The notes beneath the pieces are model-generated. The model saw nothing but the letters and a program-made list of their open reading frames with translations. It did no database searches and had not been told where the DNA came from. From Patescibacteria group bacterium (GTDB lineage: Bacteria > Patescibacteriota > Minisyncoccia > 2-02-FULL-40-12), in the NCBI GenBank assembly GCA_038062015.1, contig JBBTXZ010000005.1, positions 24,215-88,214 on the forward strand: DNA of 64,000 nucleotides, in the 5' to 3' direction. The stretch's first letter is position 1. Each line of letters begins with the position of its first letter. A program made the translations under genes and the position numbers. This document shows positions 5,041 to 51,014 of the stretch, piece by piece.

Positions 5041-6738
5041 ATGATCCGTCGAATAATAATCGGTTTATTCATTCTTTTGATTTTCGGCACGGCTATTTTT
5101 TTGTTGTACCGGAGCGGATTCCGCGAAGGCAATGTCATTTTTAAAATAGAAGCTCCGGACCAAGTCTCATCCGGAGAAGAAATTGAATACCGGCTCATCA
5201 TTGAAAACAGAAACAATTTTGATTTGAATAACACCAAGCTTTCGTTGTCTTATCCCGGCGGAACGATTTGGTTCAATAAAGAAGGCCAGCCGTCCAATTC
5301 GGCGATCAATAATATTGATTCAGCCGGGTTTCAAAGACGCGAGAGAAAAGAATTTATTTTAAGGGCAATTTTGACCGGCGAAAAAGGCGAGATTAAAAAA
5401 ATAAAGGCCGAATTCACTTATAGCCCGAGCGGCATCAAGCCGGTTTTTCAAAAAAGCGCCGAAGCCGGAACAACCATTTCGAAAGTTTCCATCCCTCTAA
5501 CTTTGAGCGGGCCGCCCAATGTCCTGCCCGGCCAACTGGTTCAGATCTCCCTTGATTTAAGAAATGAAACCGAAGATGACTTTAAGGATTTAGAAGTAGT
5601 TTTTTCCTATCCCGACGGCTTCATTTTCAAAAAAGCTTCGTTTTTGCCGAACCAGAGCAATAACGTATTTAATTTGTCTTTGCTTAAATCAGGGGAAGGC
5701 GTGAGGATTACTATTGAAGGCAATGTTTCCGGTTTTGAAAAAGAAAGCAAAAGATTTATCGCCGCATTAAAAAGAAAAATAGACGGGAAATTCTTTGATT
5801 TTCAAAAAACCCAGGTTCTGCTTACTGTTTCGTCGCCTCTTTTAGCCCTTGATGTTTTAGTGAATGATTCAAAAGATTATATCGCTAAAGCCGGAGACAA
5901 TTTAAAATATAAGATTATATTTTCAAATAATTCCGACAATAACTTTTCAGCTTTGGAATTGTCCGTTAAGCTTGAAGGCCAGATGTTTGACTTGGTTAGT
6001 TTGAAGACCAGCGGCTTTTTTGATCAAAACTCCAGGACAATTTTATGGAACGCGGCCGCCGAGCCGGCACTGGCGAATTTAAGCCCCAATCAAAGGGGAG
6101 AAGTTTCTTTTGATATTAATCTCAAGCCGGATTTTCCAAAGGCTTTCGGCAAAAATTATTCTTTGAAGGCGGGTTCTTCAATCCAGACTTCGTCGGTGCC
6201 TCCGGATTTTAATTTGGATAAGATTACGGCTTTAGCCGAATTGATTACCAAAGTTAAATCAAAGACTGATTTCATCTCCAAAGCTTTTTATAATGATTTA
6301 GTGTTTTCAAACACGGGTCCGGTGCCGCCGCAAGTTGGCCAAAAGACCACTTATACGATACATTGGAAGATAGTCAACGAGGGTAATGACCTGACCAATG
6401 TCAGAATCGTTTCGTCGCTTTTACCAGGCATCAGTTGGGAGAATAAATTTAAAATTATGCCGATCCAGTCAGATTTGAATTATAGTCTTTCAACCGGACA
6501 GATTTCCTGGAGTGTTCCGACTGTGCCAGCCGGAACCGGAATTGTTTCCCCGGTTTTTGAAGCGGTTTTTCAGGTTGGTGTAACGCCAAGCGTGAATCAA
6601 TCCGGCCAGAATTTGGGGATTTTAAAAGAGGTGGTTTTTGAAGCGGTTGATAACTTCACCAAAGAGAAAATTAATTTAAGTCAGCCCGGGATTAATACCC
6701 AGTTCGGGGTGGATTCTCCGGGGACGGTGCAGCCATAA
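5041..6738 (+). CDS. Hypothetical membrane-anchored, beta-rich extracytoplasmic protein
   Basis: N-terminal TM helix (IIIGLFILLIFGTAIFLLY), then a long S/T/N-rich region with repetitive beta-strand-like segments. No recognisable catalytic motif. Confidence 0.5.
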   Translation: MIRRIIIGLFILLIFGTAIFLLYRSGFREGNVIFKIEAPDQVSSGEEIEYRLIIENRNNFDLNNTKLSLSYPGGTIWFNKEGQPSNSAINNIDSAGFQRRERKEFILRAILTGEKGEIKKIKAEFTYSPSGIKPVFQKSAEAGTTISKVSIPLTLSGPPNVLPGQLVQISLDLRNETEDDFKDLEVVFSYPDGFIFKKASFLPNQSNNVFNLSLLKSGEGVRITIEGNVSGFEKESKRFIAALKRKIDGKFFDFQKTQVLLTVSSPLLALDVLVNDSKDYIAKAGDNLKYKIIFSNNSDNNFSALELSVKLEGQMFDLVSLKTSGFFDQNSRTILWNAAAEPALANLSPNQRGEVSFDINLKPDFPKAFGKNYSLKAGSSIQTSSVPPDFNLDKITALAELITKVKSKTDFISKAFYNDLVFSNTGPVPPQVGQKTTYTIHWKIVNEGNDLTNVRIVSSLLPGISWENKFKIMPIQSDLNYSLSTGQISWSVPTVPAGTGIVSPVFEAVFQVGVTPSVNQSGQNLGILKEVVFEAVDNFTKEKINLSQPGINTQFGVDSPGTVQP

Positions 6739-11942: not shown

Positions 11943-13439
11943 ATGGCCGGAAAATTTTCTATTACAACTGCGATACCGTATGTAAATGCCAAAGGGCATG
12001 TGGGTTTTGCCATGGAGTTGATTCAAGCTGATGTGCTTGCCCGATTTGAGCGGCTTAGAGGAAATAATGTTTTTTTCTTAACCGGAACAGATGAAAATGC
12101 TCTCAAAAATGTGCAGGCGGCGGAAAAAGCGAATAAACCAATTAGAGAATTTATCGATGAACACGCTAAAAGTTTCATTGAGCTTGCTAAATTGCTCAAT
12201 ATATCAAATGACGATTTTATAAGAACTACAGAAGGAAGGCACATAAAGGGGGCCCAGAAACTTTGGCGGGCCTGTGAAGCGGCCGGCGATATTTATAAGA
12301 AAAAATATAAAGGTTTGTATTGCGTCGGATGCGAGGAGTTTAAAACAGAAAAAGATTTAATAGACGGATTATGCCCCGAGCATAATACTAAACTCGAAGA
12401 AATCGAAGAAGAAAACTACTTTTTCAGATTGTCTAAGTATCAGGATAAAGTCGAGAAACTTATTTTTTCAGATGAGTTGCGAATTGTGCCGATAACCCGG
12501 AAGAACGAGGCCTTAAGTTTTATCCGTCAAGGATTGCAAGATTTCAGTATTTCTCGCAGCCGGGAACGAGCTAAAAATTGGGGGATTCCTGTTCCCGGGG
12601 ACGACAGTCAGATAATTTACGTGTGGTATGACGCGTTAACCTGGTTTATAAACGCTCTCGGGTATTCTGATAACGAAGAAAAGTTTAAATTGTGGTGGAG
12701 TGATCGCAACATAGATCTTATCGGCAAGGGGATAAATAGATTTCATACGATTTACTGGCCGGTGATGTTAATTTCCGCCGGTCTTCTTCCGCCCAAGGAA
12801 ATATATATTCACGGATACATAACCATTGGCGGCGAAAAAATATCCAAATCCCTCGGCAACACAATTGACCCAGTTGATTTAGTCGGAAAATACGGAGTAG
12901 AAATTGTTCGTTATTTTCTTTTGCGGGAAATTCCGTCAGACGGCGACGGTGATTTTTCTGTCAAAAAATTAGAGGCCCGCCACAATGCGGATTTAGCTAA
13001 TAATTTAGGGAATTTGGTTTCGCGGGTTGTCGCTTTGATAGAAAAGTTTTTCAGCGGCAGTTTTAACTACTCCCGAAGATTTGTTTTAAAAGAAGTTGAC
13101 GATAAAGTGATTGATATATGGAAAAAGTACAATGAAAACATAAATAATTTTAAGCTCCACATTGCTTTAGAAAATATTTTTTCTTTGGTTGATTTCGCTA
13201 ATTTATATATTGATGAGCATAAACCCTGGTCTTTGGGCGATAATCCGGAGCATCTGAATGAAGTTATGACAAATCTGATTGTGATTTTACTTAATGTGGC
13301 TTGGTTTTTAAAGCCGTTTCTGCCTGAAACTTCAAACAGGATTTTCGGTATTTTAGGCGCGGATAAAGATGGTAAATCGTGGGAAGAAAAACCGTTTCAG
13401 GTCAAACCGGAAATTTTATTTCCGAAAATAGAGCAATGA
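11943..13439 (+). CDS. metG: Methionyl-tRNA synthetase (short form, no C-terminal tRNA-binding domain)
   Basis: N-terminal ITTAIPYVNAKGHVG region, zinc knuckle CVGCEEF...CPEH, and KISKS (KMSKS) motif. Confidence 0.9.
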   Translation: MAGKFSITTAIPYVNAKGHVGFAMELIQADVLARFERLRGNNVFFLTGTDENALKNVQAAEKANKPIREFIDEHAKSFIELAKLLNISNDDFIRTTEGRHIKGAQKLWRACEAAGDIYKKKYKGLYCVGCEEFKTEKDLIDGLCPEHNTKLEEIEEENYFFRLSKYQDKVEKLIFSDELRIVPITRKNEALSFIRQGLQDFSISRSRERAKNWGIPVPGDDSQIIYVWYDALTWFINALGYSDNEEKFKLWWSDRNIDLIGKGINRFHTIYWPVMLISAGLLPPKEIYIHGYITIGGEKISKSLGNTIDPVDLVGKYGVEIVRYFLLREIPSDGDGDFSVKKLEARHNADLANNLGNLVSRVVALIEKFFSGSFNYSRRFVLKEVDDKVIDIWKKYNENINNFKLHIALENIFSLVDFANLYIDEHKPWSLGDNPEHLNEVMTNLIVILLNVAWFLKPFLPETSNRIFGILGADKDGKSWEEKPFQVKPEILFPKIEQ

Positions 13440-13565
13440 AATATAATCCTCAAAAAATTGAGAAGAAGTGGTCCCGATTTTGTCTCCGACAAAGTCGGAG
13501 CTATAAAATCGAGGATCCTCGATTTGTTGATTGTGCTTCGCGCAAAACAAATCGGGACAGAAATT
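13437..13565 (+). other. ~130-bp insertion at the metG/leuS junction: duplicated leuS 5' end plus a nested-hairpin structured element
   Basis: atgaaatataatcctcaaaaaattgagaagaagtgg at 13436 duplicates the true leuS start atgaaatataatccaaacaaaatagaacgaaaatgg at 13566. Between them: long-range stem gtcccgattt/aaatcgggac enclosing the hairpin ctccgac-aaa-gtcggag and the 20-bp palindrome aaatcgaggatcctcgattt. Confidence 0.7.
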
Positions 13566-15986
13566 ATGAAATATAATCCAAACAAAATAGAACGAAAATG
13601 GCAACGTTACTGGGAGAATAAAAAACTTTATCAAACTAAAGATAAAGTCAAAGGCAAGAAAAATTTTTATCATTTGGTGATGTTTCCTTATACTTCAGGC
13701 GATCTTCATATGGGACATTGGTATAATTATGCGCCATCAGACGTATATGCCCGTTTCAAGCGGATGCAGGGATTAAATGTAATGGCGCCGATCGGTTTTG
13801 ACGCTTTCGGGCTTCCGGCTGAAAATGCGGCCATCCAAAGAAATATCAATCCGGCTGATTGGACCAGACAAAATATCTCGTATATGACCAAGCAATTAAA
13901 AAGCATGGGCGCAATTTTTGACTGGTCGAGAAAAGTAGAAACAATTGACCCCGAATACTATAAATGGACCCAGTGGATATTTTTGAAGTTTTATGAAAAG
14001 GGTTTGGCTTATCGAGCTAAAACAAAAGTAAATTGGTGTCCTAAGGATAAAACTGTTTTGGCTAACGAGCAGGTCGTGGATAATTGCTGCGAAAGGTGTG
14101 GGACTCAGGTGGTTCAGAAAGAATTAGTTCAGTGGATGTTTAAAATCACAAAATATGCCGATCAGCTTATTGATGATTTGGAAAAACTTGATTGGCCTGA
14201 AATAACTAAAACCGCCCAGAAGAATTGGATAGGAAGATCGCAGGGAGCAGTTATAAAATTTCAAGTTGAAAATTCAAAGAATTATGTAGATGTTTTTACG
14301 ACTAGGCCTGATACTATTTTCGGCGCTACTTTTATGGTTTTAGCGCCGGAGCATGAATTGGTTAAGAAAATTACTAAAGATCAATTTTTAGGCCAAGTAA
14401 ATAATTATCTTGAGAATGCAAAAAAGAAAACAGAGCTTGAAAGATTGGCTGAAGTAAAAGAAAAGACAGGGGTTTTTACTGGTGCTTATGCTTTCAATCC
14501 GGCAACCAAAGAGAAAATTCCGATTTGGATTTCTGATTTTGTTTTGCCTCATTACGGTACTGGCGCGATTATGGCTGTTCCGGCCCATGATGAAAGGGAT
14601 TTTGAGTTTGCAAAGAAGTTTAATTTATCCATTAGGGAAGTTATTGGCGGCGGCGATATTTTAAAAGAAGCGTACGAAGGCGAAGGTAAATTGATTAATT
14701 CGGGGAAGTTTTCCGGAATGGATTCTGAAAAAGCCAAGTGGGAAATTACAGAATTTGTCGGCGGAAAGAAAATGATTTCTTATCGGCTGCACGACTGGAT
14801 AATTTCTCGTCAGCGGTATTGGGGGGCGCCGATCCCAATGGTTTATTGCCAGAAATGTGATTGGCAGCCAGTTTCAGAAAAAGATTTGCCGGTTTTACTG
14901 CCTAAAATAAGAGATTACAAACCCCCTGGAACTGGAGAGCCGCCTTTAGTTAAAGCTAAAGATTGGCTCAATGTAAAATGTCCAAGATGTTTCGGTCAAG
15001 CTCGGCGTGAGACGGATACCATGGATGCTTTCGTTGATTCGGCTTGGTATTTTCTGCGATATAGCGATCCAAAAAACAAAAAACAATTTGCTTCAAAAGA
15101 CAAATTGGAGTCTTGGCTTCCGGTAGATATGTATATCGGCGGCCAGGAGCACGCCACTAAACACCTGCTTTATGCCAGATTTATAACCAAAGTTTTGAAT
15201 GACTCTGGTTATTTGAGTTTTGACGAGCCGTTTAAGACTATGAGGCATCAAGGTCTGATTTTGGGCCTTGACGGGAATAAAATGTCTAAATCAAGAGGCA
15301 ATATAGTTGATCCCGATGAAATGGTTAAGAAATTTGGTTCAGATTCTGTTCGAATGTATCTTTGTTTTATGGGGCCTTATGAAAACGGCGGACCTTGGGA
15401 TCCGAAAGCGATTGTTGGAGTATTCAGATTCCTAAACCGAGTTTGGAATCTGATAAAACCCAAATTCCAAAATCCAAATGACAAATCAATTCCAAATTCC
15501 AAAATCCAAAACAAAGAATTAGATAAAGTTTTCAATAAAGCGATTAAAAAAGTTGGCGAAGATATAGAAAACTTAAGATTTAACACAGCGGTGAGCGAAT
15601 TGATGAAGTTACTTAACGAAATAGAAGATTTTATTAATAAAGGTTTTACGTTTCAAGTTTCAAGCTTCAAGGTCTTTTTGAAATTGCTGGCGCCATTCGC
15701 GCCGCATTTAGCTGAAGAGCTTTGGCATCAGATTGGGAACAAAAAATCAATCCATTTAGAAAAGTGGCCGGAGTATAACCCGAAACTTATTGAAGATGAG
15801 ACAGTTGATTTGGTGATTCAAGTTAATGGCCGGACTCGGGATGTAATCAAAGCCCCGCATGATTTAACCGAGCCGCAAGCCCGCGAATTGGCTCTAGCTT
15901 CGGAAAAAATCAAAAAATACGTTTCCGGAAAAGAAATCAAAAAATTTATTTACATCCCCAACAAAATCGCTAATATAGTAATTTAA
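13566..15986 (+). CDS. leuS: Leucyl-tRNA synthetase
   Basis: HMGH (HIGH) motif and KMSKS. Start placed at MKYNPNKIERKWQ (the track ORF begins upstream inside the insertion). Carries an in-frame 'ccaaaatccaaa' repeat at ~15459..15511. Confidence 0.9.
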   Translation: MKYNPNKIERKWQRYWENKKLYQTKDKVKGKKNFYHLVMFPYTSGDLHMGHWYNYAPSDVYARFKRMQGLNVMAPIGFDAFGLPAENAAIQRNINPADWTRQNISYMTKQLKSMGAIFDWSRKVETIDPEYYKWTQWIFLKFYEKGLAYRAKTKVNWCPKDKTVLANEQVVDNCCERCGTQVVQKELVQWMFKITKYADQLIDDLEKLDWPEITKTAQKNWIGRSQGAVIKFQVENSKNYVDVFTTRPDTIFGATFMVLAPEHELVKKITKDQFLGQVNNYLENAKKKTELERLAEVKEKTGVFTGAYAFNPATKEKIPIWISDFVLPHYGTGAIMAVPAHDERDFEFAKKFNLSIREVIGGGDILKEAYEGEGKLINSGKFSGMDSEKAKWEITEFVGGKKMISYRLHDWIISRQRYWGAPIPMVYCQKCDWQPVSEKDLPVLLPKIRDYKPPGTGEPPLVKAKDWLNVKCPRCFGQARRETDTMDAFVDSAWYFLRYSDPKNKKQFASKDKLESWLPVDMYIGGQEHATKHLLYARFITKVLNDSGYLSFDEPFKTMRHQGLILGLDGNKMSKSRGNIVDPDEMVKKFGSDSVRMYLCFMGPYENGGPWDPKAIVGVFRFLNRVWNLIKPKFQNPNDKSIPNSKIQNKELDKVFNKAIKKVGEDIENLRFNTAVSELMKLLNEIEDFINKGFTFQVSSFKVFLKLLAPFAPHLAEELWHQIGNKKSIHLEKWPEYNPKLIEDETVDLVIQVNGRTRDVIKAPHDLTEPQARELALASEKIKKYVSGKEIKKFIYIPNKIANIVI

Positions 15987-20010: not shown

Positions 20011-20094
20011 TGCCGAGAGAGGGAGTCGAACCCTCAAGCCCTTGCGGACGGCTGATCTTGAGTCAGCTGCGGTTGCCAATTTCGCCACCTCGGC
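20011..20094 (-). tRNA. tRNA-Leu (anticodon CAA), type II with long variable arm; CCA not encoded
   Basis: Manual fold: acceptor GCCGAGG/UCUCGGC, anticodon stem GCUGA/UCAGC with loop CUCAAGA, long variable arm, T-arm GAGGG-UUCGACU-CCCUC. Confidence 0.8.
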
Positions 20095-31540: not shown

Positions 31541-31744
31541 CATCCGAATAGCGCAACCTCGGCTTTCGGCCTCGGGTATCCGAATGCGTCCATCCGAATA
31601 TGCGGTGGCAAATCACGAATCAGAAAGCTATTCCTGGTTCGAAATTTGTTACCACTATGGTAATAAAAACAATAACAATTTAAGTTTGAAAAAAATTTAG
31701 CTTTAGTATGCTTAAAATCGGGCGCTAAGGCCCGATTTTCATTT

Positions 31745-32173
31745 ATGGCAGAAATTGTCGTCCGAAAATTAGGGATGTCTCAAGTATTCAAGGGAAACAA
31801 AGTTATCCCGGTTACTTTGATTGAAGTCCCCGGAGGAGATTTTGAAGTAAAAGAAGGCGACAAAGTAAAGGTGAGCGGGATTTCAAAAGGAAAAGGATTT
31901 CAGGGGGTGGTGAAGAGGCATGGATTTTCCGGTTTTCCGGCCAGCCACGGGCACAAGGGTCACGAAAGGGGGCCCGGTTCAATCGGCCAGAGATTCCCTC
32001 AGCATACTTTGAAAGGGAAAAGGATGGCCGGCCGCATGGGCGGGACAAAAGTGACGGTTAGGAACCTAGAAGTTGTTAAAATAGACAAAGACGATAGAAT
32101 CTTGGCGGTTAAAGGAGCGGTGCCCGGAAGAAGAGGGACGGAGTTAAAGATAATAAAAAGTTTAAATGTTTAA
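31745..32173 (+). CDS. rplC: 50S ribosomal protein L3 (short form)
   Basis: [13 protein letters not shown]...[14 protein letters not shown]3 core. Only 142 aa. Confidence 0.85.
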
Positions 32174-50580: not shown

Positions 50581-50589
50581 TGTTCCTTG

Positions 50590-50965
50590 GTAAATCTATA
50601 AGCCGAATTCTGTATTTGTGTAGTCATTTATCTGGCCCATCGATTACTTTCAGGGTCAAGCGGCACTCCCTAAACTACATAGAGTCCAGGGTACGGCCTT
50701 GCACCCGGGTAAGGATTTAGCGGACCGATATGTTGCCATACCAGTACTCGTTTCACCCCGATGCTTTAAACCCATCGCATCGGACTAAGCTTAATTTGAT
50801 AAAATCAAATCTTTGGGTTTGCCTTCTTTGGAGTCGCCTCCTTGGACGTCTCTTGTCGCACCTCTATCCTTTCGGACGGCGGGCGTTACCCGCTACCATT
50901 TTAACTACTCATTTTTAAATAAGTACGTGGGTGTTCGGACTTTCCTCTCTCTGTTAAAATATATA
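50590..50965 (-). ncRNA. rnpB: RNase P RNA (bacterial type)
   Basis: Minus strand contains a P3 hairpin followed by GAGGAAAGUCCGAAC (P4 5' strand), GGGUAACGCC, a GAAAGG...GGUGCGACAAGAGAC region resembling GAAAGGGUGCGGUAAGAGCGCACC, and ACAGAAUUCGGCUUAUAG (P4 3' strand, cf. ACAGAACCCGGCUUAUCGG). The + strand ORFs here are spurious. Confidence 0.65.
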
Positions 50966-51014
50966 ACAGAGAGTGACTACCCGATTTGCCAAAGAACTAT
51001 TATATTATAGCAAA

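Follow-up and report, generated by a model that had tools for sequence, protein, structure and literature searches.

A double-hairpin repeat, probably mobile, inside an orphaned leuS start at a metG–leuS junction in Patescibacteria

Results

The metG–leuS junction holds two leuS starts

The stretch of DNA analysed here (the window) comprises 64,000 nt of a metagenome-assembled genome (MAG) contig from a Patescibacteria group bacterium (assembly GCA_038062015.1, contig JBBTXZ010000005.1, positions 24,215 to 88,214 of the forward strand). Its metG and leuS genes are separated by a short segment in which a palindromic repeat, the subject of this report, is embedded in what is very probably a dead stub of leuS. 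In window positions, the junction is composed of the following features.

11943..13439, plus strand: metG (methionine–tRNA ligase) coding sequence (CDS), 498 aa; its TGA stop (13437–13439) overlaps the stub ATG at 13436 in an ATGA
13436..13471, plus strand: orphaned leuS 5' stub, codons 1–12, MKYNPQKIEKKW; the ancestral ATGA overlap with metG is kept
13472..13557, no strand assigned: double-hairpin palindromic repeat of 86 nt, TCCCGATT...AATCGGGA, between leuS codons 12 and 13, at TGG^CAG
13558..13564, plus strand: CAGAAAT, codons 13–14 of the old leuS (Gln-Lys) plus 1 nt; relatives read TGG CAG AAA/AAG past codon 12
13566..15986, plus strand: working leuS CDS, 806 aa, aligning over its full length to LeuS homologues that begin MKYNP...
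13436..13576, plus strand: mechanical 46-codon open reading frame (ORF) of the stub, from ATG 13436 through the element to a TAA 8 nt into leuS

The two copies of the leuS start are seen directly in the sequence, as an earlier note on this DNA had recognized. The first opens at ATG 13436, across the metG stop, and reads ATGAAATATAATCCTCAAAAAATTGAGAAGAAGTGG (MKYNPQKIEKKW); the second opens at ATG 13566 and reads ATGAAATATAATCCAAACAAAATAGAACGAAAATGG (MKYNPNKIERKW). Over 36 nt they are identical at 27 positions, with the first 14 matching exactly, and six of the nine mismatches fall at third codon positions. The two ATG codons are 130 nt apart and hence in different frames; the leuS frame is that of metG and is open back to the metG stop. 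The stub ORF does not end exactly on the true start, as had been thought, since its TAA occupies 13574–13576, 8 nt past the A of the ATG; the TGA of the ATGA at 13567–13569 belongs to another frame. A single T (13565) separates CAGAAAT from the leuS ATG, and the intact second leuS 5' end begins 9 nt past the element.

LeuS must be made from ATG 13566. The database entry for the protein (P0001) starts at ATT 13563, one codon further 5', and gene callers extend the LeuS N-terminus spuriously through the element or stub, as in P0030 (MVPILLEN..IEDPRF..IGT), in P0069 (..LRESGP..) and in an 842-aa TTG-start ORF of the window (13458–15986).

The closest LeuS relatives, at 72–77% nucleotide identity, supply the empty site. 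Homologues of metG lie directly 5' of leuS in four fetched loci (L002, L003, L081 and L082). In L003 and L082 the genes overlap by ATGA, which there holds the working leuS start, with nothing inserted; L002 has a 3-nt gap and L081 a 55-nt spacer with an unrelated 22-nt palindrome. Judged by these junctions, the window segment is an insertion relative to its close relatives, and this part of the earlier proposal, an insertion with a target duplication of about 36 bp, stands. The duplication does not. As the clade reads TGG CAG AAA/AAG past codon 12, the CAGAAAT behind the element is the continuation of the old gene; the first copy thus runs 7 nt beyond the element, which lies inside the stub and not at the junction of the repeats, and a simple target-site duplication is excluded.

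The L081 palindrome (CCAAAATTGAATTCAATTTTGG, positions 2963–2984 of that locus) is perfect over its 22 nt and is preceded by GATCGGGCGAC. Palindromes may have landed at the metG–leuS junction more than once.

The element folds as two adjacent bulged hairpins

RNA folding of 13430–13600 gives −48.8 kcal/mol, well beyond the −27.9 ± 3.5 of shuffled controls (z = −5.95, 0/200). The minus-strand RNA (z = −4.64) and the DNA (z = −6.79) behave alike. Three stems described earlier are present, at positions 1–3 nt from those first assigned: GTCCCGATTT/AAATCGGGAC at 13471–13480 and 13549–13558, the hairpin CTCCGAC-AAA-GTCGGAG at 13485–13501 and a 20-nt palindrome at 13506–13525. The first had been taken to enclose the other two. 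The minimum free energy (MFE) structure consists instead of two adjacent bulged hairpins (13470–13517 and 13518–13556), which MFE and the covariation of the family described below delimit as follows.

13472..13515, no strand assigned: hairpin A, with TCC-CGATT (13472–13479), arm 1 (13480–13506, containing the inner hairpin CTCCGAC-AAA-GTCGGAG) and AATCG-A-GGA (13507–13515); bulge A13512
13516..13557, no strand assigned: hairpin B, with TCC-T-CGATT (13516–13524), arm 2 (13525–13549) and AATCG-GGA (13550–13557); bulge T13519

The core AATCGAGGATCCTCGATT, conserved in the family, is 13507–13524 in the window. Four CGATT/AATCG half-sites permit two alternative pairings.

Known regulatory RNAs do not account for the segment. 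Covariance scanning of 13000–14000 with Rfam 15 at E ≤ 10 returned noise only, with neither a T-box nor any other family, and the full window at the gathering score gave RNase P RNA and one tRNA, again with no T-box; a T-box leader is rejected, in agreement with the absence of a consensus remarked on earlier. The search for an intrinsic terminator produced a weak consensus match at the central palindrome, with the tail GTTGATTGTG, and the geometry of the stub ORF varies over six leuS loci (below), so that a terminator or attenuator was likewise set aside.

The element belongs to a dispersed family

A BLAST search with 94 nt against the fetched loci identified three related copies, all within 6.7 kb of L005: the first occupies the corresponding position in leuS, where it has a separate stub, MSKYNPQKIEKKW, and a different upstream gene; the second is intergenic; and the third is in the leuS ORF past EELW. 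A pattern derived from four copies (CCCGATT N5-35 AATCG NNNN TCC N CGATT N3-33 AATCGGG) was scanned over metagenome contigs and occurs in at least 120 stretches, from groundwater and sediment metagenomes, giving at least 121 distinct elements in all; family counts here and below are those among the matches listed. The same pattern has no match in 2.9 million viral contigs.

The family consensus is (TT)G-TCCCGATT-[arm]-AATCG-N-GGATCC-N-CGATT-[arm]-AATCGGGA-C(AA). Elements measure about 46–95 nt and have no ORF of their own. Of the 121 copies, 114 have the T of the terminal inverted repeats TCCCGATT/AATCGGGA and all 121 have the A; the repeats are often extended to TTGT.../...ACAA. Arm lengths are bimodal (7–14 or 23–31 nt) and symmetric between the two arms, and since most copies fit the pattern on both strands the unit is strand-symmetric. 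The core is AATCGAGGATCCTCGATT in 78 of the 121 copies; most variants alter one of the two bulge positions, whose variation is independent.

Almost every arm has a sequence of its own (223 of 242 are distinct), and yet the arms are self-complementary, with an MFE per nucleotide of −0.545 vs −0.116 after shuffling. The long arms carry recurring inner modules (CTCCGAC..GTCGGAG, CCAAATC..GATTTGG and TCAAGC..GCTTGA). RNAalifold analysis of 39 short-form copies yields two hairpins with one bulged base each. Pairing is kept in 99.0% of cells, and changes on both sides occur in 111 cells compared with 28 ± 4.5 in shuffled alignments (0/500), a signal that is abolished by shifting the pairing partners; one-sided changes and G–U pairs are nearly absent from the stems. 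Covariation confined to Watson–Crick pairs, G–U pairing near zero and strand symmetry point to selection on a DNA form rather than an RNA, either a folded single strand or a strict palindrome; the pattern argues against the central palindrome as the selected helix. Mutation plus selection seems a weak explanation for arms that are distinct yet perfectly paired, and a palindrome-generating process, such as hairpin opening and fill-in, may lie behind them.

Elsewhere in the window a hairpin, AAAATCGGGC-GCTAAG-GCCCGATTTT (31712–31741), lies just 5' of the ATG at 31745 (rplC according to the earlier note, which described its stem as related). The terminal 7-mers of the family, AATCGGG and CCCGATT, do occur in it, with the right end placed before the left (chance expectation 0.03 per window), while its architecture is not that of the family. 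Candidate explanations are a footprint, a joint between element ends, and a terminator-like hairpin with no relation to the family.

Insertion sites and copies within genes

Copies lie in intergenic DNA, just 5' of start codons, beside tRNAs, at 3' ends and inside ORFs; for about 26 element sides the ATG of a long ORF is 8–15 nt away. Several contigs hold more than one copy (L005, L087, L085, L114 and L130). Past EELW, four highly dissimilar LeuS genes (L005, L145, L157 and L178) carry an element, and the window has none at this site. By its presence and absence at such orthologous sites the family is best described as mobile selfish DNA.

Flank statistics and the comparison of filled with empty sites place the insertion in the middle of T(T/G)G^CA(A/G)-like sites with no regular duplication. 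Most copies have no flanking repeat, and those in ORFs add exactly the element length. Exact flanking repeats of 9–13 nt occur in a few (L195, L179, L156 and L094), and where longer ones are found they range from 13 to >60 nt and do not meet at the element. One element is clearly nested in the arm of another in L096 (716–827); nesting is also probable in L092 (2757–2846), where a second AATCGGGAC lies just past the matched copy.

In all 24 in-ORF copies the insert is 3n long and free of stops, whereas 43% of the other copies belong to that length class (P = 1.6e-9), from which we conclude that they are translated. They can be read in three frames (SRF..KSRILD..SG, VPI..NRGSSI..IG and PDF..IEDPRF..NRD). 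Splicing, or ribosomal bypass of the T4 gene 60 type, was considered and rejected: in-ORF copies keep the frame and hence are read, and the window element is followed by a full start and N-terminus.

Some elements lie in dead copies of gene ends

The left flank of each element was aligned with the right flank of the same element, with a null cut at 99–99.9%. About 20 of the roughly 120 copies, about one in six, exceed the null and show a diverged copy of a gene end. The targets are leuS and four other protein families at their 5' ends, one protein family at its 3' end and four tRNAs.

leuS 5' end: window, L005, L107 and L128; L204 and L205 were reached from P0030 and P0069, whose N-terminal extensions are unusual
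Thioredoxin-reductase-like N-terminus: L186, L097
Zinc-ribbon protein: L185, L133
RsmI-like N-terminus: L109
Another 5' end: L111
3' end (NPQxVExIL*): L172, L085
tRNA 5' fragment followed by intact tRNA: L129 (Thr), L153 (Val), L196 (Trp), L148 (Ile)

The complete gene is retained in every case and the element lies in the dead copy, which usually continues for 5–8 nt past it: CAACAAC in L186 (7/7), GAAAATG in L111 (7/7), CAGAAAT at leuS, and 6–7 nt in L153 and L129. In L148 (5212–5599, minus strand) three 100% identical 155-nt units of stub, element and spacer stand in tandem, each with the 5' half of tRNA-Ile(TAT), the element in its D-loop and a 43-nt promoter-like spacer, and the intact tRNA-Ile follows at 5078–5151. 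Identity of the units implies that local amplification occurs.

Six leuS loci share the insertion site

Stubs equivalent to that of the window are found in L005, L107, L128, L204 and L205. All six loci have the insert after the W12 codon, followed by CAGAAAT (CAAAAAT in L204) before the new start, and all six stubs keep KY(N/F)PxKIE(K/R)KW, the differences among them being mostly synonymous or conservative. Stub ORFs start with ATG, GTG or TTG and are 16–47 codons long, and neither the length nor the stop position of the window ORF is conserved in the other five loci. Relative to the true ATG the stops are at +8, +8, +11, −52, −51 and −74: the ORF ends 8–11 nt past the true start in the window, L128 and L205, and inside the element, 51–74 nt before the start, in L005, L107 and L204. 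Such variation leaves no conserved geometry for coupling or attenuation.

At the codon-12 site of L205 (1560–1601) a different, GC-rich hairpin, GCCCCGCC-AAC-GGCGGGGC, precedes the same CAGAAAT remnant; either the element has been replaced or a second family occupies the site.

Part of the evidence bears on exchange between lineages. The stub of L005 is similar to the start in L206 (MSRYDPQKIEKKW), a relative of L005 that lacks the element, with a mismatch between the CAGAAAT of L005 and the CAACGCT of L206. Codons 1–12 and 13–20 of the window leuS are 92% and 79% identical to L005, vs 78% and 58% to L081 of its own clade, and for codons 21–40 the relation is reversed (59% to L005, 87% to L081). 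Patescibacteria possess competence and recombination genes (PMC12455944). These observations are no more than suggestive of a unit consisting of element, remnant and new codons 1–12(–20) that might move between lineages and leave the recipient's own start behind as a stub. A third-position bias (26/35 differences) was rejected as proof of foreign origin, because neutral decay of the stub, mixed with synonymous changes in the gene, leads to a ratio much like it.

Discussion

We propose that the segment between metG and leuS is a mobile double-hairpin repeat lodged in a dead leuS stub, and that it reached this state through a hairpin-connected junction followed by spread of the arrangement among lineages; to the statement as a whole we assign a probability of about 0.6. 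Its parts differ in strength. That the segment is a member of a mobile repeat family, that the stub is dead and that leuS starts at 13566 is very probable, whereas the account of how the leuS arrangement arose and spread is tentative and rates somewhat below even odds. The element is tolerated in genes solely where it keeps the frame or where an intact gene end stands beside it, and a leuS-specific regulatory role is unnecessary. In this genome the hairpins overlie the probable ribosome-binding region and are read through by the stub ORF, so that translation of leuS may be affected locally.

The order of gene-end copy, element, about 7 nt (usually 5–8) of continuation and new start with its gene recurs in independent gene families and tRNAs, which makes it probable that the hairpin had a part in forming the junction. 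A polymerase or exonuclease could have stalled a few nucleotides past the hairpin, and an intact copy of the gene start could then have been reached by a switch of template or by an illegitimate join. The resulting unit of element, CAGAAAT and fresh leuS codons 1–12(–20) could then spread among lineages by homologous recombination in naturally competent cells, with the conserved N-terminal coding sequence of leuS as homology arms, and every invasion would turn the recipient's own leuS start into a fresh stub. More speculatively, and on balance doubtfully, family members might be 'gene-end-regenerating' cassettes, in which a hairpin-triggered event at the ~7-nt offset is succeeded by homing-like invasion of the same housekeeping gene or tRNA through natural transformation and recombination, without splicing, an intein or perhaps a dedicated nuclease, the arms recording repeated hairpin opening and fill-in.

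Several observations weigh against the main proposal. The sample of copies is shaped by the search pattern chosen, and window-wide searches for the stem motif, exact and relaxed, returned a single copy in 64 kb. The ~7-nt offset has exceptions, 19 nt in L148 and ~0–2 nt in L109. No transposase or other partner protein or enzyme was identified in the fetched loci; no pair of termini brackets a transposase-like ORF in the 1.5 Mb of these loci, whole genomes lying outside that search. The mosaic signal is 60 nt only and LeuS N-termini are generally conserved; the element-free L082 also has the 'new' type of leuS start, and sliding identity along metG, examined for an upstream recombination breakpoint, is uniform with no mosaic. 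Protein-like conservation of the stubs over six lineages could also be produced by a translated upstream peptide under selection. The intervals between solitary termini in L178 and L100 hold a LeuS gene or no long ORF (one unrelated ORF lies just beyond), and no transposase.

Among the alternatives, a purely in-situ origin survives best, although we consider it unlikely as the full account. Insertion at TGG^CAG would be followed by a hairpin-induced template switch that re-copies the gene start, the hairpin being bypassed on the second pass, and by later drift. The typical 5–8-nt offset over independent targets, the near-identical copies in the tRNA cases and the three tandem units before intact tRNA-Ile in L148 all suit such an event. 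It leaves unexplained how stubs remain protein-like over ~35% nucleotide divergence of leuS, and why CAGAAAT is common to lineages whose native sequence differs. Each cassette may well have originated in such an in-situ event, which to that extent overlaps with the reading that we prefer.

The upstream peptide just mentioned, in an arrangement inherited vertically from ancient times, would account for the retained start codon and KY(N/F)PxKIE(K/R)KW motif of the six stubs with their largely synonymous or conservative differences; we think it improbable, since start codons vary (ATG/GTG/TTG), the ORF ranges from 16 to 47 aa, the analogous tRNA stubs are untranslatable, the closest relatives in each clade lack the arrangement, and the elements differ strongly among the six loci where the stubs do not.

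Less probable still is a cis-regulatory leader of leuS, close to the coupling or attenuation device suggested in the earlier note, in which ribosomes coupled to metG cross the hairpins and re-initiate, or pairings 1:2/3:4 and 1:4/2:3 of the half-sites attenuate. The region is very stable, both sets of pairings can form, a possible GGGA ribosome-binding site lies within a stem, and in the window, L128 and L205 the stub ORF ends suitably close to the true start. The same element nevertheless occurs in at least 120 unrelated contexts, including ORFs and tRNA neighbourhoods, with at least 121 places in the family as a whole; in L005, L107 and L204 the stub ORF halts within the element, the strand symmetry and Watson–Crick-only covariation speak for DNA, there is no T-box or other Rfam match at the junction, and close relatives manage without the element. 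As the reason for the existence of the element a leader is largely refuted.

Ordinary transposon insertion with a 36-bp target-site duplication that has since diverged has very little left to recommend it: direct repeats do flank the window element and 9–13-nt repeats flank those of L195, L179, L156 and L094, but seven nucleotides of the old gene intervene between element and second copy, most copies have no flanking repeat, in-ORF insertions equal the element length exactly, and the repeats, from 13 to >60 nt, always terminate at a gene end. A metagenome assembly artefact, two strains chimerically joined across a palindrome, is conceivable for a MAG contig, as palindromes and strain mixtures can mislead assemblers, and is dismissed because six independent assemblies from different projects share the architecture, the exact match between the copies is just 14 nt, below assembler k-mers, and more than 120 copies show a coherent biology that includes the in-frame rule.

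Comparison with known repeats

[quoted passage not shown] Rickettsia palindromic elements (RPE) are small palindromic repeats that lie in-frame in protein genes and are translated as extra peptides (PMC10969869). The Patescibacteria in-ORF copies resemble them in behaviour, in that 24/24 are 3n in length and stop-free, two recurrent LeuS sites among them. They differ in host phylum, in size (46–95 nt vs about 100–150), in their two bulged hairpins and hypervariable covarying arms, and in the frequent duplicated gene ends and tRNA stubs, which a review of MITEs does not mention for RPE (PMC10969869).

Bacterial MITEs such as Correia/CREE, ERIC, BOX, RUP and the Coxiella QMITEs are short, non-coding and dispersed, have terminal inverted repeats and are occasionally intragenic in-frame (PMC10969869, PMC5896051). 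The present family is likewise short and non-coding, with terminal inverted repeats, at least 121 dispersed copies and presence or absence at orthologous sites. Unlike MITEs it has no fixed-length target-site duplication, its arms differ in almost every copy yet are perfectly paired, and its architecture restores gene ends; no cognate insertion sequence was found in the fetched loci.

REP, REPIN and BIME sequences, mobilized by RAYT (an IS200/IS605-like Y1 enzyme), consist of hairpin units in inverted pairs, are conserved in structure more than in sequence and cause no target duplication; REPs are extragenic and accompany a RAYT gene. Two bulged hairpins and the lack of a regular target duplication are shared with these and with IS200/IS605-derived elements. 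Unlike REPs, the Patescibacteria copies occur within genes and the unit is fully strand-symmetric; a RAYT-like gene was sought in the fetched loci only.

Paquin, Laforest and Lang are said to have described, in 2000, mobile double-hairpin elements of Allomyces mitochondria that are intergenic and occasionally in genes. Those elements are organellar and their sequences unrelated to ours. Other mitochondrial hairpin repeats have been reported (PMC2800124). Integron attC sites were rejected as a counterpart, as the ends here are TCCCGATT/AATCGGGA with no GTTRRRY and the likeness is limited to the idea of a bulged hairpin.

Integrative elements that form tRNA-gene islands, and mobile endonuclease ORFs in mitochondrial hybrid genes, supply a replacement end of the target gene. 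Like them, the loci described here show an intact gene and a displaced, diverged end fragment adjoining inserted DNA. Unlike them, where kilobases with an integrase or nuclease are inserted, the insert is 46–95 nt of non-coding DNA, inside the displaced fragment and mostly at 5' ends.

The family is apparently undescribed: Rfam 15, the 2024 review of prokaryotic MITEs and text searches contain no description of such a family in Patescibacteria, although coverage is incomplete and novelty therefore unproven. Genomes of these bacteria are tiny and tightly packed and are thought poor in repetitive or selfish DNA, a picture that changes with hairpin repeats within essential genes (LeuS, tRNAs). 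The repeats persist through in-frame translation or a restored gene copy left behind. They account for unexpected extensions at the N-terminus and wrongly called starts among database proteins (P0030, P0069 and the 842-aa ORF), can serve as markers for recombination among uncultivated lineages and may bring to light a mechanism of duplication that depends on hairpins and keeps a nearly constant offset. In annotation terms, the leuS start is 13566, and 13436–13565 is not a riboswitch.

Other features of the window and of related loci

The two gathering-score matches to Rfam in the window are an RNase P RNA of class A at 50583–50992 on the minus strand (410 nt matched to a model of 367 positions, at 113 bits) and a tRNA of 84 nt at 20011–20094 on the minus strand. 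In one relative (L082, 462–1523, and L083, 327–1388) a 353-aa ORF with a faint match to LAGLIDADG_3 stands in place of the TP_methylase gene that precedes metG in L081. Some Parcubacteria LeuS proteins (950–991 aa) contain an inserted NUDIX domain (PF00293), as in L001 (4001–5641), in P0003, P0007 and P0018, and in L178 (860–3835).

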